64,000 nt of DNA from Candidatus Peregrinibacteria bacterium (GTDB taxonomy: Bacteria; Patescibacteriota; Gracilibacteria; Peribacterales; Peribacteraceae). Below are positions 42,030-49,248 of this stretch, piece after piece. The DNA lies in assembly GCA_018648865.1 (NCBI GenBank), contig JABGQH010000004.1, positions 72,961-136,960 of the forward strand, given 5' to 3'. Each line of letters opens with the position of its first letter. Position 1 is the stretch's first letter. Below the pieces are notes generated by a model. It was not told the DNA's origin. It worked only from the letters and a program-made list of their open reading frames with translations, and did no database searches. The position numbers and the translations under genes are program-made.

Positions 42030-42737
42030 TTATTCCTCAATAAAACCCATAGGTCGCACCGATGCTCTCTTGCTTTTAAGTCCACTAATAGCTTCATCAA
42101 TCATTTGTAATCTTAGCTTTAGGGTAGATGGACCAACTCTATGTTTACTGCGAAGAAAAATATTATCATTCTGGATTCCAACTGGAGCAGCTTTCTCACT
42201 AGATCCTAAAATATCTTGGCATAAGTCATAAAGCATAATCCCTGCTGTTTTAGAACAGAATCCAGCACGAGTATAAGTACGCAACATCAGTCTTTGCTCT
42301 GTAGAAAGCTCGCGCTGATAAGATACGGAATTGTTTACGCGGTGTTCTACTTCTCCTGGAGTTGGCGCATCCCCTGCATCGTCTTGATCTTCTGGTGCAG
42401 CTGAATGTGCATCTAATGGGACATAAGTAGAAGTATCATTAAAATCTGGGCATTCAACATCTTCTCCATTTCGTAAACGATCTCTACATCTTTCTACTGC
42501 TCTAGAGTATGCACGGCGTTGCATATGAAATGTGTTTCTATAATCTTGTGCTAAAGCATGTATATCAATTGTCTCTTGAATAACTCTGCCTTCTTGGTCT
42601 ATAGACCTATAAAGAGAAACCAATTCTGCTGTATGTAATCCGGAACTACTCATAAAGACCTGAGCAAGTAATGGCAGAGCCATAACTACAGCAAGCAGAA
42701 TAATTACAGGACGTCTCGTAGATCTATTTTTTTTCAT
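42030..42737 (-). CDS. Hypothetical exported or anchored protein
   Basis: N-terminal hydrophobic segment (VIILLAVVMALPLLAQVF). No motifs recognised. Confidence 0.5.
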   Translation of the reverse strand: MKKNRSTRRPVIILLAVVMALPLLAQVFMSSSGLHTAELVSLYRSIDQEGRVIQETIDIHALAQDYRNTFHMQRRAYSRAVERCRDRLRNGEDVECPDFNDTSTYVPLDAHSAAPEDQDDAGDAPTPGEVEHRVNNSVSYQRELSTEQRLMLRTYTRAGFCSKTAGIMLYDLCQDILGSSEKAAPVGIQNDNIFLRSKHRVGPSTLKLRLQMIDEAISGLKSKRASVRPMGFIEE

Positions 42738-42783
42738 GTGTGTTTTTTTGTAAAGTTCCCTATATTCTATCAGAAATTGCCCT

Positions 42784-43743
42784 TTAACGCAATCCTACTG
42801 CTTTTTTAACTCTATCCATCGTAACTTCTGCGATGGATGAAGCGCTTACAGACCCGCTATCTAGTATTTCCTTAACGTCTGAATCAGATAGTGAATCTCT
42901 CTTCTTCCTCATAGAGGAGAATGTATCCATAAATGTTTCTAACAATTTATTTTTAGCATCTCCGTATCCCAGTCCCCCAGCCTTATACTGATCTGCTAAA
43001 TCTTTTTGCTCTTTATCACTTAATAAAGGTGCATGCATTTGATACACAATGCATTCCTCTGGATTCTTTGGCTCCTCTACAGATTTGGAATCTGTAGTAA
43101 TTCCCATAATCGCCTTTTTGATTACTGACTCATCTGCAAATAATGGGATTGTATTTCCATAACTCTTACTCATTTTTTGACCATCCGTTCCAGGTATTAC
43201 AGCTACATCCTTTCGAATTCTAACATCTGGAACTACTAACGTTCCTTCTGCATATTGGTTATTGATTTTCTGAGCTATGTCTCTAGTAATTTCTATGTGC
43301 TGTTTTTGATCCTTACCAACAGGAACTATGTCTGTATCGTAAAGTAAAATATCTGCGGCTTGAAGTACTGGGTATGTAAATAGTCCAGCAGAAGCACTTA
43401 GGCCTTTTTCTACCTTCTCTTTATAACTAACAGCACGCTCCAATAGTCCCATTGGAGTAATGCAAGAGAGTATCCAAGAAAGCTCTGTGTGATAAGGGAT
43501 ATCCGATTGGAAAAACAGAATCCCCTTATTTGGATCAAAACCACATGCCAATATGTCTTTTGCCAAATCCCATCTAAAACGATTTAGCTCATCTGCGTCA
43601 TGAACAGAGGTAAGTGCATGTAGATCTGCAATCATGTATAAATTTTCATCTTCACCAAGTAAATCAATATTTGGCTTAATAGAACCTAAGTAATTACCAA
43701 GGTGTGCATCGCCAGATGGTTGCATTCCAGAAAGAACTCTCAT
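42784..43743 (-). CDS. trpS: Tryptophan--tRNA ligase
   Basis: SGMQPSGDAHLGNYLG (HIGH-type region), GKDQKQH and KMSKS. Start set at ATG 43743 (MRVLSG). Confidence 0.95.
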   Translation of the reverse strand: MRVLSGMQPSGDAHLGNYLGSIKPNIDLLGEDENLYMIADLHALTSVHDADELNRFRWDLAKDILACGFDPNKGILFFQSDIPYHTELSWILSCITPMGLLERAVSYKEKVEKGLSASAGLFTYPVLQAADILLYDTDIVPVGKDQKQHIEITRDIAQKINNQYAEGTLVVPDVRIRKDVAVIPGTDGQKMSKSYGNTIPLFADESVIKKAIMGITTDSKSVEEPKNPEECIVYQMHAPLLSDKEQKDLADQYKAGGLGYGDAKNKLLETFMDTFSSMRKKRDSLSDSDVKEILDSGSVSASSIAEVTMDRVKKAVGLR

Positions 43744-44665: not shown

Positions 44666-44941
44666 CTATAAAACGCTCGTAGTACCCACTACTTTCTTCT
44701 TCTTGTACTCAGAATTAGTCATGAGCAAAAAGATAGCTGGGAATATTCCGATGGAATTAACCAACAAAAGTGGAATATACCAATATATCTTGCCCATACG
44801 AGCAGCACGCCACAGTGCCCATCCTTTCAAGGCAGCATCTACTAAAGAAAGAGCCATAAAAACACCAATCATTGGACCCAAGTTAAACGAATCCATTAGG
44901 AATGGTGCATTTTGCGATAAAATATCAAGTTTGTCAGTCAT
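44666..44941 (-). CDS. Small membrane protein, DUF5652-like
   Basis: KGWALWRAARMGKIYWYIPLLLVNSIGIFPAIFLL matches the pattern I associate with DUF5652. Confidence 0.5.
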   Translation of the reverse strand: MTDKLDILSQNAPFLMDSFNLGPMIGVFMALSLVDAALKGWALWRAARMGKIYWYIPLLLVNSIGIFPAIFLLMTNSEYKKKKVVGTTSVL

Positions 44942-44975: not shown

Positions 44976-45164
44976 CTATTGTTCTTTTTCTGTATTTGTT
45001 GATCTTGGCTTAATCAATGGTGTTGCTTTTAGTGCGGACCTTTCCCGTTCAAACTCAGCAATCATATTCCCTAAGAGCTTCCCCACAGGGGAAACATCAT
45101 CTATTACTTTTTCATCAGCGGGAGGATTTTCATCCCCATCTGAAATATTATCTGGATTAGACAT
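44976..45164 (-). CDS. Hypothetical small acidic protein
   Basis: ORF only. Start chosen at the internal ATG (MSNPDN). Confidence 0.3.
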   Translation of the reverse strand: MSNPDNISDGDENPPADEKVIDDVSPVGKLLGNMIAEFERERSALKATPLIKPRSTNTEKEQ

Positions 45165-45277
45165 AATTATTATATAGAAATTTGTCTGATTATACACTTA
45201 TTACAGAAATGTCAAGTATTGGATATATAAATCTTATAATAATGCTAATTTTTAATTTTTTGTTAAATAGAAAATCT

Positions 45278-45303
45278 GAACCTCAAGGTTAACCTCGAGG
45301 TTC
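45278..45303. terminator. 26-nt near-perfect palindrome (GAACCTCAAGGTT|AACCTCGAGGTTC)
   Basis: Read directly, with one mismatched pair. It lies just beyond heptamer array copy 2, on the downstream side for minus-strand transcription. Confidence 0.45.
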
Positions 45304-45328
45304 AAATAGTAAACTAATTTGAATTTAT

Positions 45329-45360
45329 GCTTAAAGCTTAAGTCTTATAGCTTAAAGCTA
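45329..45360 (-). repeat. Heptamer array copy 2 (GCT TAAAGCT TAAGTCT TATAGCT TAAAGCT A)
   Basis: Read directly. It abuts the duplicated dcd 3'-end fragment, and the fragment's TAG stop is part of the array end. Confidence 0.85.
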
Positions 45361-45386
45361 TTTAAACTCTGGATCTAAGCTTAATC
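45359..45386 (-). pseudogene. Duplicated fragment of the dcd 3' end (encodes ...SLDPEFK*)
   Basis: 25 of 28 nt are identical to 46823-46850, the real dcd 3' end (LSLDPEFK*). In the same frame it reads S L D P E F K stop. Confidence 0.7.
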
Positions 45387-45395
45387 ATTACTACG

Positions 45396-46379
45396 CTATG
45401 ACTCGATTTTCAAATTGCCTGTTCCATCAAATTTTAACCTCTGATCTAAGCCAGCATTAGATATTTCATCATTTATCCACTGTTCAAATAATTCCCTCTG
45501 TTGTGGATTCATCTGTGAAAATACATTTTGTGCCTTGTCGATTGCTAAATCATATTTAACTGAATCAACATTGTCGTTTCTTAAAGCAGAAACTAAATCA
45601 TCTGCTATTTTACGAGAATGATATCCATCTTCAAATTGATCAATTATAGCATCATCATTTGCATCAAATTCTTCATCCTTATATGTGTCTGTATATGTCC
45701 CCTTCTTTTCATCTAATTTAATATCTACTTCATCAAAAGTTTGATTTAAATTGATTTGCATTGGCTTAGTATCTGTAGACAACCTATTTGCTTCATTGAT
45801 ATTATTATTTACTAGTGTTTTAATTTGCCTATAACGATCATCTGATGGATCAATCTGTGACAATTCATCAATTAATGATATACCTTGTCTATCCATATTA
45901 GATAAACGATGTAGACAGTCATTTAATACACGAGATTGCATTTCCATGTCTCTACTCATTTGTGCATGAACATCTGAAAGACGATCATCTAATAAATCAA
46001 CATGCTTGCTAACTGACGCTTCAGCCCAAGACTGTAACCTGCTCTGAAGCGCATCTTTTGATTCGAGTGTGTATTGTATATTTTTTGAAAAAACATCAAT
46101 ATTTTTAGATTGAATTTCCCTATTTCTTTTGTCTCGTTCTGTTAATCCATTTGCATTTTCAGAAGACGCTTCATCTTGCACTTGTTCTGTATCCGCATTC
46201 TCACTTTGTATTGATTCCTCGGTTGGTGGTAGATCAATATCTGGACCTAAATTTTCATTAGAATCTTCTTTTGGAATTTCTTTTTCTACCTCCTCTGGAG
46301 CAGAGGAATGCTCAAAGCCCTCAAAATGTATTAATCTTTGTTCAGAGAAAAGCCGAAGATATTTATTTAAATGATTCAT
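45396..46379 (-). CDS. Hypothetical acidic, helical protein (cassette gene 2)
   Basis: 327-aa ORF with a 4-nt overlap with the upstream ORF. No recognised motifs. Confidence 0.5.
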   Translation of the reverse strand: MNHLNKYLRLFSEQRLIHFEGFEHSSAPEEVEKEIPKEDSNENLGPDIDLPPTEESIQSENADTEQVQDEASSENANGLTERDKRNREIQSKNIDVFSKNIQYTLESKDALQSRLQSWAEASVSKHVDLLDDRLSDVHAQMSRDMEMQSRVLNDCLHRLSNMDRQGISLIDELSQIDPSDDRYRQIKTLVNNNINEANRLSTDTKPMQINLNQTFDEVDIKLDEKKGTYTDTYKDEEFDANDDAIIDQFEDGYHSRKIADDLVSALRNDNVDSVKYDLAIDKAQNVFSQMNPQQRELFEQWINDEISNAGLDQRLKFDGTGNLKIES

Positions 46380-46711
46380 TTTATTTTTTTAATATGTGTT
46401 TCTATTTGATTGCAGTCTTCGTCATCTTGGCCTTTTGAAAGATTTTCTAATGCTCCAATAACGAATGAATGTAATTCATGAGCTTTGTCATCTAGCTCAA
46501 GTGTCTTTACTTTTAGCATCTCATTAAATTTTTGAAATGCTTCATAATATCTCATCCCTCGCTCTTTTAAGCTTTTAGGAGATTCATCTTTATACTTCTC
46601 TTTTAATTTTGGCAATTCACCTAAAACAAGATCTGGTTCAATGTCGACCATGATCGAATCATAAAATTCATTTGCCCCTTTTGGGATTTGAAGTAGTGGT
46701 AGTTTTGTCAT
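46376..46711 (-). CDS. Hypothetical protein (cassette gene 1)
   Basis: Start moved to ATG 46711 (MTKLPLL), because the longer ORF would overlap the predicted -10 box. Confidence 0.5.
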   Translation of the reverse strand: MTKLPLLQIPKGANEFYDSIMVDIEPDLVLGELPKLKEKYKDESPKSLKERGMRYYEAFQKFNEMLKVKTLELDDKAHELHSFVIGALENLSKGQDDEDCNQIETHIKKIK

Positions 46712-46729
46712 GTTTGTTTTTGTATTAAT

Positions 46730-46758
46730 ATTATACATTAAAATAAGTATTTATTCAA
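46730..46758 (-). promoter_or_regulatory. Near-consensus sigma-70 promoter inside the cassette
   Basis: On the minus strand: TTGAAT - 17 nt - TATAAT, with TG immediately upstream of the -10. The -10 ends 18 nt before the ATG at 46711. Confidence 0.55.
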
Positions 46759-46792
46759 TATTCTTCACTGTTTCACTGTTTTACTGCTTCAC

Positions 46793-46806
46793 CCCGCGTT
46801 CGCGGG
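46793..46806 (-). terminator. GC-rich hairpin (CCCGC-GTTC-GCGGG) flanked by CACTGTTT-type octamer repeats, just downstream of dcd
   Basis: Read directly. No U-run follows, so terminator function is uncertain. Confidence 0.3.
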
Positions 46807-46821
46807 ACTTCGCTGTTTTAC

Positions 46822-47400
46822 TTATTTAAATTCTGGATCTAAACTCAATCTACTCTCCTCTGGCAAAACCTGATTCTGATATTTGCTGTTTGGCTTAGCA
46901 TTGTATGGAGTTTGTGCTGCACTAGTCATAACCTCGAATGCTAACTGGCAAACACGCATCCCTGCATACAGAGCAACTGGCAAACGATTCAAATTACTGA
47001 TTTCTAATGTGATTGTTCCACTAAAGCCAGGATCTACAAAACCAGCAGTGGAATGAATGATTATTCCGAGCCTACCAAGTGAACTACGACCCTCTACCCT
47101 AGCGACTAGATCATCTGGCAATGTAATAGTTTCTTGAGTCACACCTAATACAAACTCACCTGGCTGTACTATAAATGGCTCACCATCAGAGATTTCTATG
47201 GACCGCATATTATCCTTGAACGATTCTGGCTGTTTTGGGTCTAAGATAGCGAATTTACTATGCTCATATAGCTTAAAATGGTTACCAAGACGTAAATCCA
47301 TGCTACTTGCATGTATGTGATTTGGGGTTTCGGAGTCTGAAGTAACTTTAATCCTTTCAGAGTCTATTGCTTCCCGAATATCTTTGTCTGACAGAATCAT
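46822..47400 (-). CDS. dcd: dCTP deaminase
   Basis: MILSDKDI at the N-terminus, then EGRSSLGRLGI and VCQL, typical of Dcd. 192 aa. Confidence 0.9.
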   Translation of the reverse strand: MILSDKDIREAIDSERIKVTSDSETPNHIHASSMDLRLGNHFKLYEHSKFAILDPKQPESFKDNMRSIEISDGEPFIVQPGEFVLGVTQETITLPDDLVARVEGRSSLGRLGIIIHSTAGFVDPGFSGTITLEISNLNRLPVALYAGMRVCQLAFEVMTSAAQTPYNAKPNSKYQNQVLPEESRLSLDPEFK

Positions 47401-47481: not shown

Positions 47482-49248
47482 ATGAACTCTGTTCAAGCTC
47501 TCACAGGAAATACGGTTGAGACTAATCTGGATACAGATGAAGATGCAAATCAAACACAGCAAAGCGAAAAAGATTTACACAATGAATGTCATGGAATTCA
47601 AATGCAGATTTTAGGGTTGTTATCCGAGGGTGTAAGTCAGCATTATTTAACAGACAAAGATCGATTAGACTATATGGGTGCGATCTCTTTAGAAAAGCTA
47701 GAAGAAGGGGGTGCAGTTAGCTGGGAGCAAAAGAAAAGATGGCTAGAAGATAATATGAGGAGTTATGTTCCACATTTTCTATCCGAAGCAAGGCACATGA
47801 CAGATGAGTTCATGGGGGAAATCAGTAAGGCAAAGAAACAAAAATGGATATCTAGTTCTAGTGCAGAAAGATGGAGAGATAGACTCTTTCAAAGATCTAC
47901 AAACTGGGCAGAAACAAAGTCATTTCTGATTCAATTTAAAAAAGGGTATATGGAAAATTGGAAGAAATTATCAGAAAAAAGAAAGACCATAGAAGGAAAG
48001 AAAAAAGAACTAAAAGTAACAGCAAAAGAAGTTCCCGAACTTAAATTGCTAGAAAAATCTGGTTTTGATGAGCTACACTTCTTTGAAAAAATGAGAATTG
48101 CAAGTGAGGCACTGGTTGCACTTAATATGTACAAAGAAACTAGTGAACATAAAAAGAAACTGTATGAACAGGCAAAGAAAATGATGAATGGGGCAATAAA
48201 AAGTCGGTTTATTAGGCAAGATAGAGCCATGAAATGGATTGAGGATTTATTCAGTTCTAAGCTCCCTGCAGAAAAGATTGAACAAAATATAAACGGGAAA
48301 ATGACAAATTACATAGGCGAGTGGACAAAGGTTAAATACAGATACGATCGTATTTTAAGAAGAATGGAAAAAGGTGTTCCACCAGGAACAGAAAAATTGA
48401 ATGAACAACAATTCTTAAATCTACTCTACAAAGAAAAAATGAGTTATGTAGAAGAAGCTGAACACGCACTCAATTTGATCGATACAGGATTTAGCTCCAG
48501 GGAGATCGATGGAATGAAACTGGAAATTCGAAGCTTGATGGCTCAAAAAGATTGGGAAGGGGCAAAAGAAGTACTTAAATCCGCTAAAGCAATTGCGCAA
48601 GGAGAAGATATATATGAACTAGATTCTATGGATAGATTTATAAAACAATTTTCTTCTGTAGAAGAGAAAGAAACAGCAAATGAATCAGCTGCAAATATAA
48701 ACGAAGACATCCGTAGAGAATTAGGCAACGTACCTGCAAGTATACAAAAACTATATATTCAAGCGTTGCAGTATGGGCCACAAGTGTTTGCAAGTTTGTG
48801 CACTCTTGAATACAACAGAACTTGGTGTTGGAACAACGGATACTTAGATGCAGAAAAGGAAGATAATCTATATAACAAATCTTTTAAAGATACCGAAGAA
48901 ATAGTAGAAAATGGACACAAGAAACGTGGTCTTGAAAATATAAATCTAGATATTATCGAGGATAACGAGAAGGATAAAGCAATGCGCCCTTACGAAAACA
49001 CATGGGCACCAACAATCATCCATATGGATGCAAGTGATGGAGGATCATGTAATCGACTTCTAAATGAGTTGAAAGGGAAAGAAAGAGCCAGAGACTATTG
49101 GACATCCTTAATTGTAAAAAACATAACATACGAAAAACAAAGAGAATTAACCCTAGGCACAAATAGAAAAATGAAAAGCAGTATCAGAAAACTACATGCG
49201 AAAGGATTTGGATTTAGTTTGATAGGAGACCCAATCTCATTGAATTAA
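47482..49248 (+). CDS. Hypothetical large helical protein (ORFan)
   Basis: 588-aa ORF, Lys/Glu-rich, with no motif recognised. Confidence 0.5.
   Translation: MNSVQALTGNTVETNLDTDEDANQTQQSEKDLHNECHGIQMQILGLLSEGVSQHYLTDKDRLDYMGAISLEKLEEGGAVSWEQKKRWLEDNMRSYVPHFLSEARHMTDEFMGEISKAKKQKWISSSSAERWRDRLFQRSTNWAETKSFLIQFKKGYMENWKKLSEKRKTIEGKKKELKVTAKEVPELKLLEKSGFDELHFFEKMRIASEALVALNMYKETSEHKKKLYEQAKKMMNGAIKSRFIRQDRAMKWIEDLFSSKLPAEKIEQNINGKMTNYIGEWTKVKYRYDRILRRMEKGVPPGTEKLNEQQFLNLLYKEKMSYVEEAEHALNLIDTGFSSREIDGMKLEIRSLMAQKDWEGAKEVLKSAKAIAQGEDIYELDSMDRFIKQFSSVEEKETANESAANINEDIRRELGNVPASIQKLYIQALQYGPQVFASLCTLEYNRTWCWNNGYLDAEKEDNLYNKSFKDTEEIVENGHKKRGLENINLDIIEDNEKDKAMRPYENTWAPTIIHMDASDGGSCNRLLNELKGKERARDYWTSLIVKNITYEKQRELTLGTNRKMKSSIRKLHAKGFGFSLIGDPISLN

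Follow-up and report, generated by a model that had tools for sequence, protein, structure and literature searches.

How did two genes that are missing from the corresponding position of a sister genome come to lie directly behind dcd, the gene of a housekeeping enzyme, and why does the very end of dcd stand on both sides of them? The question is raised by the window analysed here, a stretch of 64,000 nt from the genome of an uncultured marine Peregrinibacterium of the family Peribacteraceae (contig C20, 72961-136960; the genome comprises 1.13 Mb in 23 contigs, with 37% GC), the sequence of which recurs in many marine and seawater metagenomes from 2012-2020. The two genes are overlapping open reading frames (ORFs), here called orf111 and orf327. 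An initial annotation of this DNA had proposed that they constitute a self-transcribed cassette of two ORFans, which duplicated its target when it inserted at the 3' end of dcd. We retain the insertion and the repeat, and propose a different origin for both. In our best reading, to which we assign a probability of roughly 0.45, a two-gene operon would have arrived by homology-facilitated illegitimate recombination anchored in dcd, a 3'-end displacement in which the resident end of the gene was shifted downstream and preserved as a scar.

The end of dcd and its downstream copy

The 28 nt with which dcd ends (46823-46850) occur again on the same strand at 45359-45386 with an identity of 25/28, in agreement with the initial annotation, and in 100 dinucleotide shuffles of the window no second match to the 27-mer with three or fewer mismatches appeared. 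The downstream, or left, copy still translates as LSLDPEFK followed by TAG, its register being in frame with that stop, and it stands beside a heptamer array and a palindrome, as had also been described. Its first nine nucleotides, TATTTAAAC, are the canonical terminus of a heptamer array that occurs genome-wide, and the dcd-specific portion of the repeat comprises the remaining 19 nt, with an identity of 16/19; when an indel of 2 nt is admitted, the alignment runs a further 4 nt (AGTA), to 45392/46854. The dcd products of relatives terminate in a comparable way, with ...EESRLSxDPEF followed by 1-20 variable residues.

Could this resemblance between the end of dcd and the sequence beside an array be fortuitous? 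Nine of the 28 nt belong to the terminus of the array itself, and a 19-mer with at most three mismatches is expected by chance about 0.6 times per genome, but the corresponding expectation for the window is 0.04, and the match observed keeps exact register with the array terminus, shares the strand of dcd at a distance of 1.46 kb and runs in frame into a stop. By our own estimates, the chance of such a match in exact register beside an array terminus is about 1e-6 per site and about 1e-4 over all 62 heptamer arrays of the genome, and we give coincidence next to no chance of being the explanation. A third, weaker copy within the C-terminal part of orf327 (45431-45451, 76% identity) and a match of 14/16 at 45001-45016 were both estimated to be at the level of chance and play no part in the argument.

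The differences between the copies are informative, small as the sample is. Comparing left with live codons, they are TTA/TTG, AGC/AGT and GAG/GAA, to which the stop codons TAG/TAA may be added, so that all three differences (or all four, with the stop) are synonymous third-position transitions. Had a duplicated target simply decayed under neutrality, the probability of an exclusively synonymous outcome would be (1/3)^3-(1/3)^4, that is, about 0.04-0.01 by our own calculation. Since every difference is synonymous, both copies look like genuine dcd ends, and two functional alleles of dcd would account for the pattern better than a target that was duplicated and later decayed, on the strength of three or four sites. 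When the whole genome was scanned for genes with a 3' end repeated downstream, tandem paralogues, tandem repeats and dcd were returned, and dcd is the sole gene of the genome whose 3' end recurs downstream across unrelated genes.

Repetition of gene ends takes other forms elsewhere in the genome. Tandem repeats of approximately 110-140 nt begin inside two gene 3' ends (C9:221120-221420 and C21:6540-6860), and the last 28 nt of each gene thereby recur once just downstream; at C15:58618-70461 there is a recently expanded array of five to seven tandem paralogues, of about 560 aa each, with near-identical 3' ends.

The immediate surroundings of both copies resemble those of gene ends across the genome, in which there are 62 arrays of heptamers and over 20 of octamers. 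Thirty-five of the 62 heptamer arrays lie within 150 nt behind a stop codon, at least 17 of them only 2-11 nt behind, and the TAG that directly precedes the first C of the array serves several genes as their stop, exactly as in the left copy. The left copy adjoins its own array at 2 nt, and the same layout at no fewer than 17 real gene ends bears out the initial remark that this context is found behind other genes. At ten or more loci the two kinds of array are united in a composite repeat, in which heptamers are joined through GCTATTTAAAC to octamers (TGTTTTAC/TGCTTCAC) and a GC hairpin is present in some copies; the blocks once taken for the ends of a cassette (45329-45368 and 46760-46821) are halves of this genome-wide composite. 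The octamer block behind the live dcd (46760-46821) shares 94% identity over 53 nt with the composite at C20:40155, with shorter copies at ten or more loci, and its junction with the dcd stop, TGTTTTAC directly followed by TTA (the stop), is identical to that at C9:3409. Both 28-mers thus adjoin canonical gene-end contexts, and both sit like real gene ends of this genome.

The composite repeat behaves differently according to its orientation. In one direction the repeat follows stop codons; in the opposite one, the octamers end in a -10-like TAYACT 6-18 nt before start codons, among them those of rpe, alaS, eno and a yebC-like gene, which suggests that octamer arrays in this position are used as promoters. 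Six contig ends break within heptamer arrays.

Gene order in relatives indicates where the interruption occurred. The only genome of the same genus is G001, whose dcd is 82% identical and where dcd is followed on a single contig by an oppositely oriented HicB-like ORF of 62 aa, the DUF5652 gene and rluA; the 308-bp gap between dcd and the DUF5652 gene contains neither orf111 and orf327 nor the arrays. In G020 the order is dcd, a tRNA gene, rluA and trpS, with the operon absent, so that G001 and G020 share the series dcd-(x)-rluA-trpS; a third member of the family has unrelated genes behind dcd. The 5' side, with dnaX, dsbA, DM13 and a gene of 588 aa, is conserved across the family, and because the 3' neighbours differ while the 5' side is kept, synteny in the family breaks at the 3' side of dcd, a site that accepts different insertions in different lineages. 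The small gene orf62 has no homologue in the 40 relatives surveyed and is confined to its own genome; as it too is species-specific, the interval between dcd and the DUF5652 gene is variable as a whole. At the level of the genus, gene order supports the initial annotation in that the segment was inserted, as a lineage-specific addition, between dcd and the sequence that used to flank its 3' end.

Two of the neighbours deserve a brief description. The HicB-like antitoxin ORF of G001 (L002 1244-1432, 62 aa) has no HicA partner visible in the 308-bp gap. Homologues of the 588-aa protein encoded upstream of dcd (47482-49248) occupy the same position in most relatives, the identity being 48% within the genus and 21-33% in the family at large.

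Within the species itself the locus is uniform. Approximately 45 public contigs that encode an identical dcd or orf327 protein all have the operon at dcd with about 100% identity, and neither an empty site nor an excision joint was present in these contigs, in seven marine runs (examined as contigs, which hide rare forms) or, by two exact-pattern scans, in Joint Genome Institute (JGI) metagenome contigs. The empty site anticipated by the initial annotation is therefore seen in G001, insofar as both genes are absent behind its dcd, but not within the species. No dcd protein with 83-99% identity was found among 5.8e9 proteins, and there is consequently no closer relative for comparison. In the DUF5652 gene, one contig (JABHQZ010000011, L035) has a 1-nt insertion at window position 44863, which shortens the protein call from 91 to 63 aa and represents a frameshift in that strain or else an error of assembly; in run X11 there is a 1-nt insertion a few bases off, behind 44857.

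Table 1. Features of the dcd locus, in dcd reading direction, with examples of the composite repeat elsewhere in the genome
Feature	Position	Strand	Description
dcd	46822-47400	-	dCTP deaminase, 192 aa; Pfam DCD 1.1e-49
Right (functional) repeat copy	46822-46850	-	Includes TAA stop
Octamer array	46760-46821		TGTTTYAC units; abuts dcd stop
GC hairpin	46793-46806		CCCGCG-TT-CGCGGG, inside octamer array
Promoter, sigma-70 type	46758-46730	-	TTGAAT-17-TATAAT; TG directly 5' of -10 box
orf111	46376-46711	-	111 aa
orf327	45396-46379	-	327 aa; start overlaps orf111 stop (ATGA)
Stop-rich linker	45387-45395	-	9 nt, between orf327 stop and left copy; reads TAG-CG-TAG-TAA-TGA
Left repeat copy	45358-45386	-	Displaced dcd 3'-end remnant (proposed), LSLDPEFK-TAG
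Heptamer array	45329-45357		GCTTAAA/GCTTAAG/TCTTATA/GCTTAAA; terminus GCTATTTAAAC runs into left copy
Intrinsic terminator	45274-45307	-	15-bp stem, then TTTCTATTT
orf62	44976-45164	-	Small acidic ORF between terminator and DUF5652 gene; 62 aa in public-contig gene calls
Composite repeat, examples	C9:3388-3451; C9:62707-62771; C15:53462-53541; C7:8292-8340; C10:1487-1558; C20:40155-40231		

The promoter, the GC hairpin with its octamers, the palindrome and the two overlapping ORFs are all present as initially listed (Table 1). The promoter is the top-scoring site of the region, at 10/12, and the number of promoter-like sites, 14, shows no enrichment over shuffles (11.9 +/- 3.8); its -10 box overlaps an upstream ATG at 46738, and the homologues of orf111 align from the methionine at 46711. 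The octamer and hairpin block folds weakly better than shuffled sequences (z = -1.7 to -2.1). The terminator reaches -22 kcal/mol (z = -5.2), a stability attained by none of 200 shuffles, and is the sole terminator-like site behind dcd on the dcd strand; presumably it is the original terminator of dcd, which now ends the operon.

A gene-pair family of the Peribacteraceae

Word-indexed searches with the products of orf111 and orf327 return only the proteins themselves, and both had been labelled ORFans. More sensitive comparison with phmmer, against 1.84e9 representatives, identifies three homologues of orf327 (43%, 34% and 29% identity, with E-values from 5e-70 to 1e-19), and on all three contigs a homologue of orf111 lies directly upstream, overlapping or abutting; orf111 has 47-48% identity to the partners on L046 and L047. 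A profile of the orf111 family has a match in 188 of 200 Peribacteraceae genomes (about 94%), in one to eight copies each that are often clustered and sometimes in tandem. The members are small proteins (about 110-145 aa) that share the motif LYDSIM-x2-IEP[DE]L...LPxL.EKY...RY..AF, to which orf111 aligns over its full length, and in nearly all of 30 loci examined a large gene (300-775 aa) follows the small one. The large partners are acidic and rich in coiled coils and carry an N-terminal E-x-R-L-[IL]; orf327 has SEQRLIHF at this position and is conserved up to its last residues, KIES. Small and large gene evidently form a lineage-wide and previously undescribed family, and the label ORFan is wrong.

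Two further members of the family lie in this genome, at C2:5260-7554 and C1:52340-53058, and in a tree the copy behind dcd clusters with the three from metagenomes (support 97/99), far from these two paralogues. We take the operon behind dcd to be a copy of a two-gene operon native to the Peribacteraceae, belonging to a rare and well-supported subclade. The orf327 subfamily was not found among GTDB representative genomes, and no relatives of the family were found on viral contigs. Codon usage is native for both genes (z = +1.2 for orf327 and +0.4 for orf111), with GC slightly low, which suggests either a donor of similar composition or long residence.

With regard to function, the remote-homology and structural comparisons recommended in the initial annotation succeeded in part, in that phmmer supplied homologues, but profile and structure databases did not. 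Pfam, PHROGs and PADLOC gave sub-threshold noise for both proteins; an alignment of 26 small proteins had no match among Pfam, NCBIfam and PDB profiles; five large partners had generic coiled-coil matches in Pfam; and Foldseek, used with single-sequence AlphaFold2 models of poor to moderate quality, gave no match at E < 1. The model of orf111 is all-helical, with a mean predicted local distance difference test (pLDDT) score of 52. That of orf327 has a pLDDT of 62 overall and about 80 in residues 81-200, and its layout comprises an acidic disordered linker (residues 1-78), one long helix of about 95 residues (81-174) and a helical C-terminal domain. In the cytoplasm the two products would probably assemble into a complex in which the small one acts as adaptor or chaperone of a coiled-coil scaffold. 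A single metatranscriptome contig of 151 nt, covering 46384-46534, is weak evidence that orf111 is expressed. Neighbours of the family include mfd, in front of the pair at six of 30 loci, uvrB, in front of the copies of one genus (g77), thyA, behind one metagenomic copy (L048), and, here, dcd; this association with DNA repair and dTTP synthesis is a hint to the role of the pair, to be treated as a lead and not as a result. The gene-pair family is the more useful by-product of this analysis, being a lineage-defining module with a function worth testing.

How the operon came to lie behind dcd

Any account of the locus has to explain why a second dcd end stands orphaned 9 nt behind the stop of orf327, on the same strand as the live gene and still in the company of its former array and terminator. 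We propose that the donor DNA came from a related lineage in which the operon lay directly behind dcd. At one end this DNA would have recombined homologously inside dcd, which would have served as the anchor, and at the other it would have been joined illegitimately 28-32 nt before the stop of the resident dcd, the linker at 45387-45395 being the probable joint. The live end of dcd (the right copy) and the octamer array would thus have come with the donor, and the resident end, now the left copy, would have been pushed 1.46 kb downstream as a scar together with its heptamer array and terminator. Transcription of the operon would proceed from its own promoter and probably also by read-through from dcd, since there is no terminator between the two, and would end at the former dcd terminator (45307-45274), with orf111 and orf327 translated as a coupled pair.

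Two further observations are consistent with such a history. The genome encodes ComEC and DprA, and recombination with diverged DNA has left a trace nearby. One strain (contig ERZ4200974 NODE_2895, L036/L041) carries 52 single-nucleotide polymorphisms within 798 bp (6.5%), 38 of the 52 at third positions, in a tract at 42473-43270 that covers the 3' part of trpS and the next gene; its flanks are identical over at least 6 kb. This tract is evidently an import by homologous recombination from an unsampled relative, and its position 2.1 kb from the operon implies that diverged homologous DNA does recombine at this locus.

Several points weigh against displacement. A donor, with dcd followed by the operon and without the left copy, was not found in any collection searched, and the three closest homologous pairs are not beside dcd, one of them preceding thyA instead. 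No break in the GC content of third codon positions (GC3) marks a crossover within dcd; towards the 3' end, in the last third of the gene, third positions agree somewhat better with those of relatives, a trend that is not robust. Because G000 and G001 are close to saturation at synonymous sites, the copies cannot be polarised. Microhomology at the proposed joint amounts to at most 4 nt, and then only after the 2-nt indel, and the argument from synonymous differences depends on its three or four sites.

A 28-bp direct repeat at the conserved 3' end of a gene is, moreover, also the footprint of site-specific integration. Integrative and cis-mobilisable elements can target the 3' ends of protein genes, as do the integrative and conjugative element (ICE) ICESt1 and a cis-mobilisable element (CIME) at fda in Streptococcus thermophilus. 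The segment could be the relic of an element of this CIME-like type, with the 28-mers as attachment sites attL and attR and an attP that mimicked the end of dcd; a tyrosine recombinase would have acted in cis or in trans, and the recombinase and most of the cargo would later have been deleted, leaving two genes. We consider this, the main rival, unlikely but a real possibility. It explains the repeat as well as displacement does: direct repeats of about 28 bp flank the insert, one of them rebuilds the 3' end of the gene in frame and leaves dcd intact, the site is empty in the sister genome, an attP obliged to rebuild the gene would also differ at synonymous sites only, and a weak inverted motif (TTTAAAT-5 nt-ATCTAAA) is discernible within the 28-mer. 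What it lacks is a cognate recombinase in the element or the genome. The initial annotation was correct that the 1.4-kb segment contains no integrase or transposase gene; there is no integrase beside dcd in the 40 relatives either, and the genome offers one Xer-like tyrosine recombinase (PF00589, on C13), no serine recombinase (PF00239) and one rve ORF (C11). Nor is there a second att-like copy in the genome or an excision joint in the seven runs, the inner right end belongs to a repeat resident throughout the genome, and the cargo is a native chromosomal family with native codon usage and without viral-contig relatives, so that both a lost recombinase and foreign cargo have to be supposed with no sign of either. 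An integron finds no better support, as the single recombinase is Xer-like and on another contig and the sole border hairpin belongs to the genome-wide octamer repeat, the attC structure not having been modelled explicitly. The original proposal of a transposon-like, self-mobilising cassette with a true target-site duplication appears very improbable. A direct repeat does flank a compact segment that has its own promoter, but its copies differ at three of 28 positions, exclusively synonymous ones, and the segment has neither a transposase nor terminal inverted repeats pairing its ends. It exists as a single copy in the genome and in the collections searched, the search for further copies of its ends having led back to resident repeats; no flanking repeats were found around the homologous pairs elsewhere; and a duplication of 28 bp far exceeds those known to be produced by transposases. 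With no empty site within the species in addition, the claim that a mobile cassette duplicated its target is not upheld.

The arrays themselves invite another explanation, in which a composite behind dcd (octamers, GTTTAAATAG, heptamers) was split by the insertion of the operon, perhaps in the course of break repair from an ectopic template, and the dcd patch could have been copied through TTTAAATA microhomology. The halves of the composite are adjacent, joined by GCTATTTAAAC, at ten or more loci and stand here 1.4 kb apart in the same order and orientation; the dcd stop and the array junction both contain TTTAAATA; and the octamer and hairpin block is 94% identical to a resident copy. An event of this kind nevertheless requires an extra step for 19 nt of dcd coding sequence with synonymous-only changes, no second split composite and no other gene with such a patch occur in the genome, and lone heptamer arrays behind stops are so common that an ancestor with dcd followed by heptamers is equally canonical; we therefore regard it as improbable. 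A bolder version would make the arrays recombination modules that capture genes at 3' ends, the composite behind dcd having been opened at its junction (GTTTAAATAG) and the operon captured along with a templated copy of the dcd end. This is a long shot, although if true it would be the first caught case of array-mediated cassette capture, recombinase-independent or Xer-dependent, in Peregrinibacteria. Displacement anchored in dcd remains our preferred reading, and we think the segment an ordinary recombination scar and not an autonomous mobile cassette.

The proposed displacement and its analogues

If this is correct, the locus provides an example of gene gain in a reduced genome of the Candidate Phyla Radiation (CPR), in which a native but patchily distributed operon was placed behind a housekeeping gene and the scar was kept. 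Indirectly, it would also speak for a role of recombination with diverged relatives in shaping the gene content of this Peregrinibacterium.

The locus shares features with several systems of other bacteria. The insertions at fda in S. thermophilus are likewise flanked by direct repeats of about 27-28 bp, one of which forms the live 3' end of the gene, and there too an element occurs without an integrase of its own. Here, however, there is no cognate integrase in the genome, no partner ICE and no observed excision, while the cargo is a native chromosomal family and the inner end a resident genomic repeat. Bacterial heptamer tandem repeats situated behind genes (Rehm et al. 2015) resemble the setting of the left copy, an array of 7-nt units at a stop codon; in the present case the arrays are the setting of the scar and not the inserted element, and the heptamers pair with octamer arrays as a composite.

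For displacement, the parallel is found in the rhs loci and type VI secretion system (T6SS) effector-immunity arrays of Vibrio cholerae, where orphan 3' ends have been shifted downstream and displacement has been proposed (PMC5361080); on homology-facilitated illegitimate recombination that paper cites de Vries & Wackernagel 2002, Prudhomme et al. 2002 and Jackson et al. 2009. Unlike those loci, the displaced end here is that of a housekeeping enzyme gene and not of a polymorphic toxin, and a single round is visible, with a remnant of 28-32 nt; its donor and crossover are inferred. What the two have in common is an anchor in a conserved upstream gene with new genes placed behind it, an old 3' end shifted as an orphan remnant with no need of a recombinase, and the presence of genes for DNA uptake. 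The type of scar is already known, and what is new is this instance of it, together with the gene-pair family that it exposed.

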